A stretch of 4,919 nt of DNA from a virus (taxonomy: Duplodnaviria; Heunggongvirae; Uroviricota; Caudoviricetes). The notes beneath the pieces are model-generated. The model saw nothing but the letters and a program-made list of their open reading frames with translations, had not been told where the DNA came from and ran no database searches. Positions within the stretch are counted from its first letter, which is position 1. Each line of letters starts with the position of its first letter. Shown here one piece after another: positions 1 through 4,919 of this stretch. The stretch spans positions 1-4,919 of IMG/VR virus record IMGVR_UViG_2913123054_000007; one strand, written 5' to 3'. The translations under genes and the position numbers were made by a program.

Positions 1-342
1 ATGATGAAAAAAAGTATATTGGCGTTTTTGTTGCTCACCAGTTCCACTGCGGCGCTGGCGGCTCCTCAGGTAATTACCGTCAGCCGTTTTGAAATTGGCA
101 AAGACAAATGGGCGTTTAATCGCGAAGAAGTGATGTTGACATGCCGACCAGGTAATGCGCTGTATGTCATTAACCCCAGCACCCTGGTGCAATACCCTTT
201 GAACGATGTTGCGCAAAAAGAGGTTTCCAGTGGGAAGACTAAGGCCCAGCCTATTTCAGTGATCCAGATTGAAGATCCCAACAAACCCGGTGAAAAAATG
301 AGCCTGATGCCATTTATAGAACGAGCTGAAAAACTTTGCTGA
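1..342 (+). CDS. yebY: Small secreted/periplasmic protein with N-terminal signal peptide, YebY-like (DUF2511-type, from memory)
   Basis: ATG at 1, stop TGA 340-342, 113 aa. The N-terminus [22 protein letters not shown] is a classic Sec signal peptide with an AxA cleavage motif. The sequence matches my recollection of E. coli YebY; this was not verified by search. Confidence 0.8.
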
Positions 343-370
343 TTACCTGAATTAGGCTTTTGATTTGCCA

Positions 371-414
371 AAAAAAACGCCCAGGATCTTTTATCAGATC
401 GGGCGTTTTTTTTA
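371..414. terminator. Bidirectional rho-independent terminator (yebY on +, antisense sRNA on -)
   Basis: A8 run 371-378, GC-rich stem 379-383/402-406 (CGCCC/GGGCG) extended by GATC/GATC 386-389/398-401, 8-nt loop, then T8 run 407-414. The A-run upstream and T-run downstream let it terminate on both strands. Confidence 0.8.
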
Positions 415-479
415 CTTTTAAAACGATGATTAAGACGCTTTTTTCTGACCACTTTTCGTGTGGACTGGAAAACCTGGCG

Positions 480-498
480 TCGTCATCTATTCTTAAAG
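480..498 (+). promoter_or_regulatory. Candidate sigma-S-type promoter for sdsR
   Basis: CTATTCTTAA at 486-495 resembles the extended sigma-S -10 consensus (C at -13 followed by TAYACT-like hexamer). No clear -35, which is common for RpoS promoters. Predicted start about 499-501. Confidence 0.5.
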
Positions 499-603
499 GG
501 CTAGGCAACTAAGCCTGCATTAATGCCAACTTTTAGCGCACGGCTCTCTCCCAAGAGCCATTTCCCTGGACCGAATACAGGAATCGTATTCGGTCTTTTT
601 TTA
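499..603 (+). ncRNA. sdsR: SdsR (RyeB) RpoS-dependent small RNA
   Basis: About 104 nt downstream of yebY with three stem-loops: GCATTAATGC region (~515-527), GGCTCT/AGAGCC (543-560), and a perfect 10-bp terminator hairpin GACCGAATAC/GTATTCGGTC (569-595) followed by T7 (596-602). The sequence and the position next to yebY match what I recall of sdsR. Ends are approximate (+/-3 nt). Confidence 0.65.
580..602. other. Candidate attL core (last ~23 bp of sdsR)
   Basis: Published work that I recall (Salmonella/E. coli ryeA/ryeB locus as an insertion hot spot) places the phage attachment core in the last ~23 bp of ryeB. That corresponds to GGAATCGTATTCGGTCTTTTTTT here, and int ends 130 bp away at 734. 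The exact core limits cannot be fixed without attR or an empty site. Confidence 0.4.
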
Positions 604-614
604 ATTGTATTTAA

Positions 615-627
615 AATCAATTGGTTG
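615..627 (+). promoter_or_regulatory. Possible IHF binding site in the att arm
   Basis: AATCAATTGGTTG matches the IHF consensus WATCAANNNNTTR, in an AT-rich segment between the candidate core and int. Confidence 0.3.
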
Positions 628-636
628 CAAACGTCT

Positions 637-668
637 CCCCGAAATTCCCCGAAATTTACTCGAATTTC
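637..668. repeat. Tandem 10-bp direct repeats CCCCGAAATT x2 plus a degenerate third copy (candidate arm-type Int sites)
   Basis: CCCCGAAATT at 637-646 and 647-656, then ACTCGAATTTC at 658-668. They lie between the candidate core and the int stop, where arm-type sites are expected. Confidence 0.3.
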
Positions 669-733
669 TGTATTCCGGTCTTTTTTGGTTATATCACAAC
701 CAAAATACATTTAACAATCCATTTACGTTAAAA

Positions 734-1810
734 TCAGAGCAGTAAGTACGTTTTTTCTCTCTCATCAAGATACATTTTTGTTGTCTTCTCCGATGTGTGG
801 CCAAGTAGACGCTGAGCAAATTCTTCTCCACATGTCTCTTTGTACAATCGTCCAGCCAGACTTCTGATCTCGTGAAAAGTTGGTGGGTTTTCACTGAACT
901 GGATACCTGTTAATTTTCTGGCTGCGACAAATTTTTTTGTCAGGCCATCCGGGTGAATGCTGCCGTCAGGGCTGTTTTTTCTAATCCCGGCACTGATTAG
1001 ATAATCCCCCCTACTTACCAGGCGGCACCGTTCAACTATTGTACCAAGCCGTAATCCAGCGACCGGAAGGTTGAGTGACAGGGGGATAGCAATCATCATT
1101 CCCGTCTTAATTTGCCTGATGTGGAGACGATCATCATAAATATCACTGAACCGCATATTCGTTATGTCTTCGCGACGTTGTCCTGTTACAAGGGCTAAGT
1201 CCATAGCTAATGGGAACCATGCCGGAAGTTGGTCTGCTGCCTCCCTGATGCAGTTGTATGTCTTTAGTTTCAGTCGTTCTCTTGTAACTACTATTTTCGG
1301 TGCTCTTGTTGGCGTTACTGGATTTTGAGATATACGTCCTTCAACAATGGCCTCGCGGAACATATCAGATAACACAGAACGCATTGATCCTGCCATCGTG
1401 TTTTTCCCTCCTTCAATCCACGAATCAAGAAACTCGGCAATATGGCGAGTGGTTATTTCTGTCAGTAAAATCCCTCCCAGTTTTTCTTTTATTGTCTCCA
1501 GTTGATTTACCCGAATTTTATAAGTATTTCTGGACACTTTTCTCCTTATAAGAATCGTTTTGTAACGTTCGATCCAGTTTGACATAGTAAATGAATCGCC
1601 CCCTTTAAGTTTTTCAATTAAGGCTACAGGAGAGTAGGTTTTGTATATATAATGATTGGCTTCAATTGCCTGTGCTACCGCATCTCTTTTTGAAATTTTA
1701 CCTAGCGTAAATTCTTCTTTTGTCAGAGGATTGCGCCAGTAGTATGCTTTGTCCCTTCTTCGATATGTTAGGTTTCTAGGCAAATTGGGATCGTATTTTT
1801 TCCGCTGCAT
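734..1810 (-). CDS. int: Lambda-family tyrosine integrase
   Basis: 358 aa, ATG at 1810, stop TGA 734-736. It aligns along its length with lambda Int from memory (PNL..YYxRxPxTxKEF N-terminal arm-binding region; [11 protein letters not shown] vs lambda HELRSLSARLY; LLGH box; catalytic Tyr in KMYLDER near the C-terminus). Confidence 0.95.
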
Positions 1811-2057
1811 TTTTTAATTTCTCCAGTAACGGACTGTCTCTCCCTTGCCGACCAGTAGGCTGATGGTTTGTTATATCGGTATCAAACTTATTTGGGTTGA
1901 TATAGAATGCCTCCGGATCCACCCTGTAACTCCTCCCGTGCAGTTCAGGTGCGGGATAAATATTTCCATTCCTGGCCCACCGTCTCAGCGTTGATATTGA
2001 TGGTGGGTTATCCGGATATCTGAGTTTCCCCCACGTTTTGAGTGTCACAAGATTCAT
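1776..2057 (-). CDS. xis: Excisionase
   Basis: TLRRWARNGNIYPAPELHGRSYRV resembles the lambda Xis winged-helix region (TVRRWVRECRIFPPPVKDGREYLF). It overlaps the int start by 35 nt, as in lambda. I chose ATG at 2057 (MNLVTLK...) because AAGAGGT lies 7 nt upstream; the track's ATG at 2063 sits only 1 nt from that Shine-Dalgarno. Confidence 0.8.
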   Translation of the reverse strand: MNLVTLKTWGKLRYPDNPPSISTLRRWARNGNIYPAPELHGRSYRVDPEAFYINPNKFDTDITNHQPTGRQGRDSPLLEKLKNAAEKIRSQFA

Positions 2058-2079
2058 TGCCATACCTCTTACGATATGA

Positions 2080-2108
2080 CCGCCAGTAAATATACAGAAT
2101 ACTGGCGG
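2080..2108 (-). promoter_or_regulatory. 9-bp inverted repeat hairpin in the only sizeable intergenic gap of the operon
   Basis: CCGCCAGTA (2080-2088) and TACTGGCGG (2100-2108) flank an 11-nt loop, between the small-ORF stop (2164) and the xis start. No T-run follows on the - strand, so it is not a canonical terminator. Confidence 0.3.
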
Positions 2109-2163
2109 GCGTGGTTGATTTTTAATAATCAGCTATGAAGTTTTAATTTGAATACAATGCAAT

Positions 2164-2352
2164 TCACGAGGACTGAAGTTGCTCGCAATTAAAATTTATC
2201 AGTTTTACTTTCTGCTCTCTGGAAACGCCTGCTTCTTTTTTACCTGAGAGCATTTTTTCGCATTCTGATTTGGTTAACTTTGTTTTTGAGTACCTTGTCC
2301 AGTTGGTAGGAGAACCACCTTCCTTTTCAATAGTGGTGGTAATTTTATACAT
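2164..2352 (-). CDS. Small basic hypothetical protein (62 aa), possibly YdaC-like by synteny
   Basis: ATG at 2352 is preceded by GGAGGTG at the right spacing; stop TGA 2164-2166. The track's 86-aa version starts inside lar and lacks an RBS. Its position between xis and lar mirrors Rac (intR-xisR-ydaC-lar). I cannot confirm sequence homology from memory. Confidence 0.55.
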   Translation of the reverse strand: MYKITTTIEKEGGSPTNWTRYSKTKLTKSECEKMLSGKKEAGVSREQKVKLINFNCEQLQSS

Positions 2353-2575
2353 GAACACCTCCATTATTATTTCCAGTGGTTCGTTTATTCCATCTTTCGA
2401 GTGCTTCTTTTTCACTTCCACCATAACCGGTTCGGGATTTGCATCCGTTACACTTCGCTCGGTAATATCCTGAAATGGCTTTCACCGTTACTGATGGACA
2501 ACCACAAAATGGACATGGTTTGACTTTTGTGTATCGAACTGGTTTTTCTCCTGTGAGCTTTGTGGCTGCGCTCAT
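2345..2575 (-). CDS. lar: Lar-family restriction alleviation protein (zinc ribbon)
   Basis: 76 aa. CPFCG...CNGC forms a C-x2-C-x17-C-x2-C motif followed by EALERWNKR, typical of the Lar family as I recall it. The start ATG (2575-2573) overlaps the exo stop TGA (2574-2572) as ATGA. Confidence 0.75.
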
Positions 2576-3252
2576 TTCCATTGCTCCCCAAATACAAAAC
2601 CAATTTCAGCCAGTGCCTCGTCCATTTTTTCGATGAACTCCGGCACCATCTCGTCAAAACTCGCTATGTACTTTTCATCCCGCTCAACCACGACATAATG
2701 CAGGCCTTCACGCTTCATACGAGGGTCATAGTTGGCAAAGTACCAGGCATCTTTTCGCGTCACCCACATGCTGTACTGCACCTGGGCCATGTAAGCCGAC
2801 TTTATGGCCTCGAAACCACCGAGCCGGAACTTCATAAAATCCCGGGAGGTGAACGGGCATTTCAGCTCAAGGCCGTTGCCGTCACTGCATAAACCATCCG
2901 GAGAGCAGGCGGTACGCATACTTTCGTCGCGATAGATGATCGGGGATTCAGTAACATCCACGCCGGAAGTAAACTCAAACAGGGCTCTGGCGTCGTTCTC
3001 GTACTGTTTTCCCCAGGCCAGCGCCTTAGCGTTAACTTCAGGAGCCACACCGGTGCAAACCTCGGCAAGCAAGGTGTGGAAGTAGGACATTTTCATGTCT
3101 GGCCACTTTTTTCCTGAGCGGGGTTTTGCTATCACGTTGTGAACGTCTGAAGCTGTGATGACACCTAGCCGTAATTTGTGCCACGCATCATCTCCCTGTT
3201 CGACAGTTCTCACGTCGATCCCGGTACGCTGCAGGATAATGTCTGGTGTCAT
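2572..3252 (-). CDS. exo: Lambda exonuclease (Red alpha)
   Basis: 226 aa, [15 protein letters not shown]...GFVFGEQWK. It is essentially identical to lambda Exo from memory, with a few substitutions. The exo ATG overlaps the bet stop as ATGA. Confidence 0.97.
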
Positions 3253-4034
3253 GCTGCCACCTTCTGCCCTGCGGCTTTCTGTTTCAGGAATCCAAGAGCT
3301 TTTACCGCCTCGGCTTGTGTCAGTTCTGACGATGCGCGAATGTCGCGGCGAAGTATCTGGGAACAGAGCGGCAATAAGTCGTCATCCCATGTTTTATCCA
3401 GGGCGATCAGCAGAGTGTTAATCTCCTGCATGGTTTCCTCGTTAACCGGAGTGATGTCGCGTTCCGGTTGATGTTCTGCAGTGCATGCGGTATTTTCGAC
3501 AATGCGCTCGGCTTCATCCTTGTCATAAATACCAGCAAATCCGAAGGCCAGACGGGCACACTGAATCATGGCTTTATGCCGTAACATCCGTTTGGGATGC
3601 GACTGCCACGGTCCGGTGATTTCTTTGCCTTCTCGGGTTTTGAATGGTTCGCGACGGCACTCATCCATCCACTCGGTAACGCAGATCGGATGATTACGGT
3701 CCTTGCGGTAAATCCGGCATGTACATGATTCATTGTCCTGCTCAAAGTCCATGCCATCAAACTGCTGGTTTTCATTTATGATGCGGGACCAGCCATCAAC
3801 GCCCACCACCGGAACAATGCCGTTCTGCTTATCAGGGAAGGCGTAAATCTCTTTCGTCCACGGATTAAGTCCGTACTGGTTGGCGACGATCAGCAGCGCA
3901 ATGAATTGCGCATCGCTGGCATTACCTTTAAATGCCGTCTGGCGAAGAGTGGCGATCAGTTCCTGCGGGTCGACAGAATCCATGCCGACGCGTTCAGCCA
4001 GCTTCCCGGCCAGTGTTGCAAGTGCTGTACTCAT
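3249..4034 (-). CDS. bet: Red beta single-strand annealing protein
   Basis: 261 aa, [26 protein letters not shown]...; near-identical to lambda Bet from memory. AGAGG sits 10 nt upstream of the ATG at 4034. Confidence 0.97.
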
Positions 4035-4039
4035 TCGTT

Positions 4040-4339
4040 TTATACCTCTGAATCAATATCAACCTGGTGACGAGCAATGGTTTCAACCATGTACCGGATG
4101 TGCTCCGCCACGCGTTCCTGAAATTCAACATCGTTATCAAATGCGCGACTGATTGCCTGTTTGCTGGCACCGTGGCGTTGCAAATGGTCGATGCAGAGCG
4201 ATTCAAACAGGTGCTGGGGCAGACCTTTTTCCAGGTCGTCCGCCAGTTCCGTTTCTTTTTCTTCGCGAACGATCTTCTGGTAGTGGCGTGACCATGCCAG
4301 CTCTTCAATGCGATCAAAAATCGGGCATGTGCTCATCAT
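4040..4339 (-). CDS. gam: Gam, RecBCD inhibitor (short GamS-like form)
   Basis: 99 aa. ...[20 protein letters not shown]...[20 protein letters not shown] matches the lambda Gam C-terminal ~95 residues from memory. The start (ATG 4339 or 4336) lies inside the 3' end of the upstream ORF. Confidence 0.9.
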
Positions 4340-4919
4340 CCGTTACCCCAAAATTTTCAAGTTTGTTTGCGATCATCATTGCAATATCCGGAATTAATGG
4401 CGCTGAGGCTATACCTGCAGGATTCGCACATAAACCGTAAACCGCCGCAATCACCACTTGTCTTTTCCAGTCGAGTTTTTCTAATGATGAAGCTGCTGCT
4501 TCGCCAGTTTCATCACTGCAATCGCGATGCGGATCGCTGCCAGCATTCTCATTGTGCGTATGTTCTGTGCCTTCCATTTCCACCGGATCATTTTCCTTAG
4601 CTTCAACCTGATTCTCTTCATCGAATGTTTCCTGGTATGTTGCGTCGCCCATCACCGCACCACAGTCAGGGCAGTTATCCCCGCCAGTCTGACCGCAGGC
4701 ATTGCAGACTATTTCCGGTTCCTGTTGCACTACTGGCTCAGGTTGTTTCACATCCGGGCTGGTTTTTTCCGTTTCTGGCGTGTTTTGTTCCGTTTCTGGC
4801 TGGTTCTGGTACACAGAATCGCGAGTCTGGATCCCCTTAACCCATTTCGGATCGTTCGGGTCGCTAATTCCGTCAACAAATTCACCACGTGATGCAGCAA
4901 GCAATTTATCGGCATCGAC
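4314..4919 (-). CDS. Acidic, low-complexity protein with CxxC-x7-CxxC zinc knuckle; function unknown (5'-partial)
   Basis: The frame is open to the window edge: the track's 'M' at 4904 is a TTG and the reading frame continues (..[14 protein letters not shown]..). Stop TGA 4314-4316. About 40 D/E versus about 12 K/R by hand count. It has a PETExxT 7-aa repeat, [16 protein letters not shown] (~4660-4708) and a more hydrophobic C-terminal ~50 aa. I recognise no family. Confidence 0.6.

Follow-up and report, generated by a model that had tools for sequence, protein, structure and literature searches.

A lambda-like Red cassette in the probable RecE nuclease and recT slot of a Rac-family prophage integrated at sdsR

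The window analysed here, a 4,919-nucleotide stretch of DNA (IMG/VR virus record IMGVR_UViG_2913123054_000007, positions 1 to 4,919), is very probably the attL (integrase) arm of a Rac-family lambdoid prophage that lies in the sdsR/ryeB terminator, next to yebY, on a non-coli Escherichia-like chromosome, and that carries a Red cassette in the slot of the RecE nuclease and recT. The phage genes form a leftward early operon on the minus strand in the order recE' > gam > bet > exo > ralR > rcbA > xis > int, with ralA antisense, and all genes of the window are intact. The window belongs to contig VATU01000013.1 of assembly GCA_005781255.1 and stops at a contig end inside recE'; its upstream context is taken from a sister assembly, a contig that is 99.8% identical to the window and carries about 8 kb more Rac-type backbone upstream of the cassette.

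BLAST comparisons place the lambda-like DNA in a single 1.73-kb island (1734 bp, positions 2561-4294, 93.5% nucleotide identity) that comprises exo, bet and most of gam. Both sides of this island are Rac-like: 2114-2527 (rcbA, ralA and ralR) is 95.9% identical to K-12 Rac at the nucleotide level and 4491-4919, corresponding to recE codons 453-587, is 91.6% identical, while a RecET-type prophage located at the same site is collinear with the window over 1-2550. The additional upstream backbone of the sister contig, in which racC, ydaE, kilR, ydaF/G and ydaT lie upstream of recE, is 93-96% identical to K-12 Rac, and lambda similarity there is confined to the 1734-bp block. The blocks of the window and the sister contig together give the backbone order of the Rac family (ralR/ralA, rcbA, recE, racC, ydaE, kilR). 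Two further traits of the family are missing: RecT with a full-length RecE bearing a C-terminal PD-(D/E)XK nuclease, and, in the window, IntR/XisR with integration at ttcA. Relatives at the same site have recT and a full recE between ralR and racC. A preliminary description of this DNA had seen a lambda/Rac mosaic of two modules; the mosaic is real and breaks right after exo, but the lambda part is internal, with Rac-type DNA on both sides. The similarity profile proposed there as a check came out as expected on the integrase side, lambda similarity dropping sharply at 2561-2572 and similarity to K-12 Rac being confined to 2114-2527. The second lambda boundary, at 4294, is absent from that description.

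The three Red genes occupy the minus-strand coordinates given earlier. Gene exo (Red alpha, 2572-3252) encodes a 226-aa protein with 96.0% amino acid identity to lambda Exo and a Pfam YqaJ match (1.4e-30). The residues used as criteria for a Red system, the catalytic D119, E129 and K131 and the 5'-phosphate-binding R28, are all conserved. Gene bet (Red beta, 3249-4034; 261 aa, 96.9% identical to lambda Bet, Pfam RecT family, 4.6e-33) lies directly upstream of exo and overlaps it by a 4-nt ATGA. The gam gene (4040-4339) encodes a short form of 98-99 aa with a Pfam Gam match (2.2e-55). It is 78.6% identical to lambda Gam over residues 41-138, so that the near-identity to lambda claimed for all three proteins holds for Exo and Bet but not for Gam. 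An exact look-up of the 99-aa Gam returned no match; gene callers use the 98-aa start. The dN/dS values relative to lambda are 0.105 for exo and 0.059 for bet, and those of the Red genes overall range from 0.06 to 0.15. By sequence, then, the expected components of a lambda Red system appear to be in place: an exonuclease with the Exo fold and residues, Bet encoded upstream of exo, and a Gam-family member.

The left junction of the cassette (2550-2572) lies directly 3' of the exo stop, as located by the BLAST ends and the stop position: similarity to the RecET-type prophage stops at 2550, lambda similarity begins at 2561, and the stop codon of exo occupies 2572-2574. The segment 2551-2571 (21 nt) weakly resembles both lambda and Rac and is ambiguous in origin. 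This junction sequence is identical in all four independent genomes compared. The 4-nt ATGA overlap between exo and ralR (lar) at 2572-2575 is present as described before, and the same ATGA joins exo to orf60a in lambda; the overlap therefore arrived with the lambda block and was not made by the junction. The cassette edge would thus fall within about 20 nt past the exo stop, the ATGA of the lambda exo stop and orf60a start having been kept and the orf60a-start ATG now heading an extended ralR ORF. The idea that the module boundary coincides exactly with a gene boundary holds to within these ~20 nt; beyond that it depends on the upstream ATG that matches the lambda orf60a start.

The ralR toxin gene (2345-2575, minus strand; Pfam Lar_restr_allev, 4.9e-14) is a 76-aa ORF when read from the ATG of this overlap, and its product is 93.8% identical to K-12 RalR over 64 aa. 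Downstream of it on the same strand lies a 62-aa rcbA/ydaC-like DUF1187 ORF (2164-2352; Pfam DUF1187, 1.6e-36; 93.5% identical to K-12 RcbA), and these two genes are the pair of lar and a small ORF that had been recognized as Rac-type. The gene for RalA, the type I antitoxin sRNA of RalR (2168-2346, plus strand), is antisense to rcbA and adjacent to ralR, and matches Rfam RF02694 over the full length of the model (positions 1-179 of 179; 205.8 bits, threshold 170). The 16-nt repeat of the RalA/ralR pairing, at 2230-2245 and 2402-2417, is the pair known from K-12, 14 of the 16 positions being identical in both; the role of this complementarity has been described (Guo 2014, PMC4041452). The sRNA placement and the complementarity thus agree with the RalR/RalA system, but the ORF has no canonical start codon: the canonical 64-aa ralR start (2539-2537), 36 nt downstream of the upstream ATG, reads GTT in the window, whereas three sibling prophages have GTG, and K-12 and ETEC4085 have ATG. 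Since this start is lost, RalR may not be produced in the strain from which the window derives. The gene callers of the source assemblies predict a 76-aa ralR that starts at the in-frame upstream ATG at 2575.

The right edge of the cassette would have two steps, lambda similarity ending within gam and recE returning about 200 nt later. Nucleotide similarity to lambda extends to 4294, some 15 codons inside gam, and that to Rac recE starts again at 4491. The intervening linker (4295-4490) encodes the first ~15 gam codons and a ~59-aa C-terminal tail of RecE', and it has no similarity to lambda or K-12 Rac. It is present in 106 of 5426 E. coli genomes and, among the matches listed, always adjoins gam and lies mostly under an annotated RecE-family gene; in Stx-phage types it is 60-80% identical. 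The recE' gene itself (4314-4919, minus strand) is the 3' part of a nuclease-less RecE ORF that continues beyond the end of the window; the recE' stop codon overlaps the start of gam. RecE' is 88% identical to residues 453-587 of K-12 RecE, and similarity in the window ends at codon 587, ahead of the PD-(D/E)XK domain (615-850 in K-12 RecE); recT is absent from the window. The ORF is intact in the sister contig (673 aa) and in an E. coli genome (671 aa). The C-terminal 201 aa of RecE', tail included, match no Pfam family, and PHROGs gave only generic 'exonuclease' families that cover the RecE-like part. The tail has a dN/dS of ~0.14 against Stx phage 75/02, and recE' is unbroken and evolves under purifying selection in several lineages, Stx phages among them. 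Annotation pipelines label the nuclease-less RecE a pseudogene.

The integrase gene int (734-1810, minus strand) encodes a lambda-Int-type, sdsR-site-specific tyrosine integrase with arm-binding, core-binding and catalytic domains (Pfam Arm-DNA-bind_1, Phage_int_M and Phage_integrase), in which R212, K235, H313, R316, H338 and Y347 align with the six catalytic residues of the lambda RKHRHY set. The protein shares 38% identity with lambda Int, and blastp yielded no alignment between it and IntR of Rac. The excisionase gene xis (1776-2063, minus strand; Pfam Exc, 1.6e-14) has relatives annotated from the third codon, giving 93 aa, and its product is 33% identical to lambda Xis and does not align with XisR. 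The most int-proximal genes are accordingly not Rac-like, contrary to the earlier notion of a Rac-like int-proximal module. The int/xis module meets the Rac-type block at 2064-2113: similarity to K-12 Rac starts at 2114, and a five-way alignment shows prophages whose integrases differ resembling one another from ~2113 onward, immediately upstream of ralA. Int and xis form a third module that can be exchanged separately.

Integration at sdsR, as proposed earlier, is confirmed by Rfam, which places the prophage directly after the SdsR/RyeB sRNA gene (503-602, plus strand; RF00111, 118.1 bits, threshold 38), and by two empty sites from the same host that diverge from the lysogen after 603, directly past the sdsR terminator (junction ~603/604). 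The attachment core lies in this terminator; a terminator-like hairpin in the SdsR/RyeB gene, at 568-596, is cited descriptively, the counts of the promoter and terminator scan being at the level expected by chance. On the opposite strand the 5' end of the SraC/RyeA sRNA gene (462-606; RF00101, 174.8 bits, threshold 37) abuts the prophage junction. The sequence shared by host and phage, attL, is put at 580-603, with phage-specific DNA from 604; its left limit is taken from the report on PhiW104, whose attachment site is given as the last 23 bp of ryeB (Balbontin 2008, in the summary passage of PMC7380047). The junction in the window agrees with that site and, on the attL side, with what is described for the ryeA/ryeB hot spot, a core within the final ~23 bp of ryeB. 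According to the same summary passage, PhiW104 and other ryeA/ryeB elements likewise integrate at the ryeB/sdsR 3' end and displace the ryeA 5' region; PhiW104 is a different phage in a different host, Salmonella. A Salmonella prophage integrase matches the int of the window at 72% nucleotide identity.

The chromosomal gene that flanks the prophage, yebY (1-342, plus strand; a 113-aa ORF whose E. coli homologue is a YebY family protein by PGAP), is 84-88% identical to E. coli at the nucleotide level, and the 6.3-kb chromosomal flank is 85.7% identical. The host is therefore not E. coli; the flank identity suggests a non-coli Escherichia, conceivably E. albertii. Over the prophage arm (604-4919), identity to E. 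coli prophages is mostly 90-100%, as against ~86% for the chromosomal flank, and this comparison points to recent cross-species spread via the conserved sdsR attachment site. Of 5426 complete E. coli genomes, 16-17 contain both junctions, at sdsR and ttcA sites: the same Red-bearing Rac backbone also occurs with true intR/xisR at ttcA, and in others with int at sdsR. Two NCBI assemblies carry identical junctions, as does one Logan read-set assembly. A probe for the right junction matched more than 2100 genomes by its recE or gam part only, and among the matches listed these are mostly full-length recE. The ralR/exo junction was found in none of the sequenced phages of the collection, only in bacterial chromosomes; the phage-database search was made with the recE' segment and the int-to-ralR segment separately, and with the full window for near-identical matches. 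Neither a 39-mer from the ralR/exo junction nor a 53-mer from the host intergenic region had an exact match in the genome-contig scans.

We propose that a gam-bet-exo cassette took the slot of the RecE nuclease domain (after codon 587) and recT. An exonuclease/annealase pair would thereby have been swapped as a unit for an analogous pair, with a RecBCD inhibitor brought along, and the N-terminal ~590 aa of RecE would have stayed on as an unbroken ORF that acquired a tail of ~59 aa. The donor probably already carried recE'-gam-bet-exo, since the recE'-tail-gam architecture is also found, much diverged, in Stx phages; the right crossover would then be homologous and lie within recE. The gene content, the breakpoints, the distribution and the purifying selection are observed; the direction of the exchange, which is unproven, the recombination mechanism and the expression of the genes are inferred.

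The break at 2550-2572 is sharp and Exo and Bet are 96-97% identical to lambda, as one would expect if a single join at the exo stop had linked a lambda-type early-left region, the Red genes and everything upstream of them, to an int-proximal module of Rac type. Such a single join is nevertheless very improbable and, on the present comparisons, already refuted, unless the source strain differs upstream from the 99.8% identical sister contig: lambda similarity also stops at 4294 with Rac recE from 4491, the 8 kb further upstream in the sister contig is Rac-type, and int and xis are not Rac-like. An assembly chimera, in which reads of lambda-like and Rac-like prophages were mis-joined in a draft genome, might be suspected in a window cut off by a contig end within a repeated phage gene; it is next to impossible with identical junctions in the two NCBI assemblies and the Logan read-set assembly and in 16-17 closed E. 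coli chromosomes. The recurrence in closed genomes led us to reject an assembly artefact as the origin of the junctions.

The opposite polarity deserves more weight, although we consider it unlikely. Here recE'-gam-bet-exo would be ancestral, and the RecET form would have arisen later, when a nuclease domain fused to the RecE N-terminus and, with recT, replaced gam-bet-exo. The recE'-tail-gam arrangement does occur in diverged lineages (Stx phages and 78 E. coli genomes, at 60-80% nucleotide identity), RecE' is under purifying selection, and a third variant, Gam with an AAA_24/Sak4-like ATPase, has the same recE'-gam part. On the deeper timescale recE'-gam-bet-exo could indeed be as old as RecET, because the arrangement is found in diverged Stx phages. 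On the Rac backbone, however, few genomes have the Red form (16-17 of 5426), more than 2100 genomes match the right-junction probe by its recE or gam part only, and the identity of the left junction across hosts and attachment sites suggests one recent event.

The layout can be set beside several known systems. K-12 Rac (intR-xisR-rcbA-ralA/ralR-recT-recE-racC-ydaE-kilR...) shares its blocks with the window in the same order and orientation, but has recT and the RecE nuclease domain in place of gam-bet-exo, its intR/xisR are unrelated to the int/xis of the window, and its site is ttcA instead of sdsR. The Red region of lambda is collinear over the 1734 bp, with both the bet/exo ATGA and the exo-stop ATGA in common, whereas kil and cIII upstream and orf60a to ea8.5 downstream are all missing in the window, Int is 38% identical and the att site differs. 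The ORFs missing between exo and xis had been described as those of the b-region, but are orf60a, orf63, orf61, ea22 and ea8.5, which are not known as lambda b-region ORFs. Stx phages of the 75/02 / POCJ13 type (int-...-exo-bet-gam-'exodeoxyribonuclease VIII') have the same nuclease-less recE'-gam-bet-exo layout, with the recE' stop overlapping the gam start, and are 84% identical to the window over 2578-4919 at the nucleotide level (64-77% in the tail and recE' part); they lack ralR/rcbA and their integrase is unlike that of the window. The laboratory-selected phage lambda-rev consists of a lambda backbone with Rac recET. It thus involves the same two analogous recombination modules and the same two phage families, and is the reciprocal product of the arrangement described here, a Rac backbone with Red in natural isolates. 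Lambda-rev is mentioned in PMC3945230.

The window represents lambdoid mosaicism of the ordinary kind, with the nuclease-less conserved RecE as one modest curiosity. To our knowledge, what the N-terminal ~590 residues of RecE do has been an open question for decades. Three cassettes are found downstream of this N-terminus: a fused PD-(D/E)XK nuclease with RecT, Gam with Bet and Exo, and Gam with an AAA_24/Sak4-like ATPase. We tentatively suggest that the region might be an autonomous protein under selection, a constant partner upstream of interchangeable cassettes and not the remnant of a pseudogene, a reading that we consider somewhat less likely than not. For the most part the finding changes nothing; it adds a well-resolved natural replacement of analogous modules in lambdoid phages, the mirror image of lambda-rev. 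The swap would follow a logic of domains and partners, in which the exonuclease domain departed along with the annealase and the N-terminal region of RecE remained. If the suggestion about that region is true, the natural RecE' variants would be ready-made separation-of-function alleles for the role of the RecE N-terminus.

The window matches the final 4919 nt of contig VATU01000013.1 (GCA_005781255.1) at 100% identity and thus stops at a contig end, inside an ORF (recE', 4314-4919, running past the window end) for a RecE without its nuclease domain. The sister contig PDIK01000013.1 (L016), 99.8% identical to the window, extends upstream through an intact 673-aa RecE', racC-like, ydaE, kilR, ydaF/G, a repressor/cro pair, ydaT and replication genes; K-12 Rac matches this upstream part at 93-96% identity, and lambda similarity is found only in the same 1734-bp block as in the window. 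In E. coli relatives found at that site of the chromosome, recT and a complete recE lie in the interval from ralR to racC. Together with the Rac backbone of L016, this arrangement identifies the element as a Rac-family prophage, in which gam-bet-exo occupies the place that recT and the 3' portion of recE normally take. L016 differs from the window by six indels and zero substitutions, which shorten its gene calls (int 306 aa, DUF1187 54 aa); these indels are therefore probably sequencing errors, not biology.

By ORF calls, every phage gene of the window lies on the minus strand. An identity profile was drawn up with BLAST, using lambda, K-12 Rac and three relatives as references. Positions 1-2550 match an E. 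coli prophage of the RecET type, likewise at yebY/sdsR (93.1% nt), 2114-2527 match K-12 Rac rcbA-ralA-ralR (95.9% nt), 2561-4294 match lambda exo-bet-gam (93.5% nt) and 4491-4919 match codons 453-587 of K-12 Rac recE (91.6% nt; 88% aa); for 4295-4490, BLAST gave no match to lambda or K-12 Rac. The lambda/Rac mosaic put forward in the preliminary description is thus real, far beyond chance, but it has three boundaries rather than one or two, and the lambda-like DNA forms an island (2561-4294). Near-identity of the Red proteins to lambda was borne out for Exo (2572-3252, Pfam YqaJ; 96.0% aa) and Bet (3249-4034, Pfam RecT; 96.9% aa) and not for Gam (4040-4339, Pfam Gam; 78.6% aa to lambda Gam residues 41-138). 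Exo keeps residues R28, D119, E129 and K131. Compared with lambda, dN/dS comes to 0.105 (exo), 0.059 (bet) and 0.148 (gam).

The left boundary is sharply defined: similarity to the RecET-type prophage stops at 2550, lambda similarity begins at 2561 and the exo stop is at 2572-2574, which places the crossover within ~20 nt 3' of exo. The ATGA overlap at 2572-2575, previously taken to mark the exact module boundary, is present, but lambda has the same ATGA linking the exo stop to the orf60a start, so the overlap was brought in by the cassette. At the right boundary, RecE similarity ends at codon 587; the PD-(D/E)XK domain of K-12 RecE lies at 615-850, and a review places the nuclease domain at 564-866 (PMC11611040). 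The missing part is essentially the nuclease domain, with the Exonuc_VIII N-terminal region retained. The third boundary, at ~2113, separates xis from the ralA promoter region; from there on, prophages with different integrases are alike. In comparison with two other loci (L004 and L014), the int/xis boundary (2075-2112) adjoins a hairpin, CCGCCAGTA...TACTGGCGG; ttcA-type modules have a different hairpin at the matching position.

The Rac-type lar/small-ORF pair was recognized correctly: RalR (2345-2575/2581, Pfam Lar_restr_allev) and the RcbA-like protein (2164-2352, Pfam DUF1187) are 93.8% and 93.5% identical in amino acids to their K-12 counterparts. The RalA antitoxin sRNA (2168-2346; Rfam, 205.8 bits against a threshold of 170) shares with K-12 the same 16-nt RalA/ralR pairing element. 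The canonical ralR start (2537-2539) is ATG in K-12, GTG in three sibling prophages and GTT in the window, where the only remaining starts are the upstream ATGs at 2575 and 2581. Gene callers start ralR at 2575, giving a predicted 76-aa RalR with 12 extra N-terminal residues, and this ATG (2573-2575) corresponds to the lambda orf60a start. A GGGGAG motif 8 nt upstream of it, in the window and lambda alike, is its putative ribosome-binding site.

The int-proximal module proved not to be Rac-like, as protein comparison gave no alignment of Int to Rac IntR or of Xis to XisR. Int (734-1810, 358 aa) has Pfam Phage_integrase and lambda arm-binding domains and the catalytic R-K-H-R-H-Y set, and is 38% identical to lambda Int; Xis (1776-2063, Pfam Exc) is 33% identical to lambda Xis. 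Record PP818812.1 (Actinobacillus phage vB_Apl-pPE4) contains the window integrase at 95.8% nt together with a Rac-like recE; its Actinobacillus host label is odd for an Escherichia-type prophage.

Integration at sdsR was confirmed with empty sites taken from prophage-free loci with identical YebY (yebY, 1-342, plus strand): lysogen and empty site part company directly after the sdsR terminator, at 603/604. SdsR/RyeB (503-602) and SraC/RyeA (462-606) both score above their curated Rfam thresholds. The junction agrees with the attachment core of elements at the ryeA/ryeB hot spot, given as the last 23 bp of ryeB (Balbontin 2008, summarized in PMC7380047). Compared with same-host empty-site alleles, sdsR in the window has A>T at 504 and C>T at 597; the latter, in the presumed att core, may derive from the phage attP copy. 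A sigma-70-like TTTGCA-16-TACAAT (604-631, minus strand), of a kind that occurs in the region at chance level, is located in the phage sequence immediately upstream of the RyeA 5' end, placing prophage DNA where the native ryeA promoter region was, a replacement also reported for Salmonella PhiW104. In segments of 100 nt, the chromosomal flank (1-500) shows 79-88% identity to E. coli; over 6.3 kb of flank the figure is 85.7%. From 501 on, where sdsR, itself conserved, is followed by the prophage arm, most values are 90-100%. Judged from these identities, the host is not E. coli itself but a non-coli relative, and the prophage has recently passed between species.

Among 5426 complete E. coli genomes, 16 contain the ralR|exo junction and 17 the gam|recE' junction. 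Ten genomes match the whole window at 93-94%; the ralR|exo junction was absent from sequenced phages of the searched phage collection. One cassette with one junction sequence occurs both at yebY/sdsR and at ttcA, the latter in true Rac prophages that carry intR/xisR; this suggests a single origin, with the integration module exchanged afterwards. A third variant occupies the same slot in Rac-like prophages, with recE'-gam followed by an AAA_24 ATPase, a weak match to the Sak4-like annealing protein family, in place of bet-exo or recT (2643-4042 of the E. coli CFSAN029787 locus; also one match at the yebY site).

The exchange likely took place by recombination between co-resident lambdoid prophages or with an infecting phage. 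Muyrers and colleagues are said to have reported in 2000 that exonuclease and annealase work as specific pairs, which would account for the joint loss of RecT and the RecE nuclease. Experiments have demonstrated Red-promoted exchange between diverged sequences and with defective prophages, Rac among them (PMC3945230; PMC2327257), and lambda-rev is the reciprocal laboratory product of the same module exchange (PMC3945230). The earlier observation is partly confirmed and its interpretation partly supported; the element is a novel combination inside a well-known type of mosaicism.

PGAP labels RecE' a pseudogene. Yet copies on the Rac backbone are intact ORFs of 671-673 aa; Stx phage 75/02 has one of 682 aa and the AAA_24 variant one of 648 aa. 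Coordinates are 6918-8939 in L016, 10315-12330 in the Red-bearing E. coli relative L001 and 3537-5585 in L005, of the Stx phage type. RecE' carries a conserved tail of ~59 aa that overlaps the gam start, and its ORF is intact in several diverged lineages, Stx phages among them; the tail segment is found in 106 of the 5426 E. coli genomes at identities from 99% to about 74%, adjoining gam in all those listed and mostly under an annotated RecE-family gene. Between Rac-type and Stx-type copies, the whole protein has a dN/dS of 0.21; the tail has about 0.14, a rough value (few codons, dS near saturation). Because its ORFs are intact, its tail is conserved next to gam and its dN/dS is low, RecE' looks, at sequence level, like a functional gene rather than a pseudogene. 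In PMC11611040 the RecE N-terminal region is given as having no known function, and the conserved nuclease-less RecE is the single modest lead from the window.
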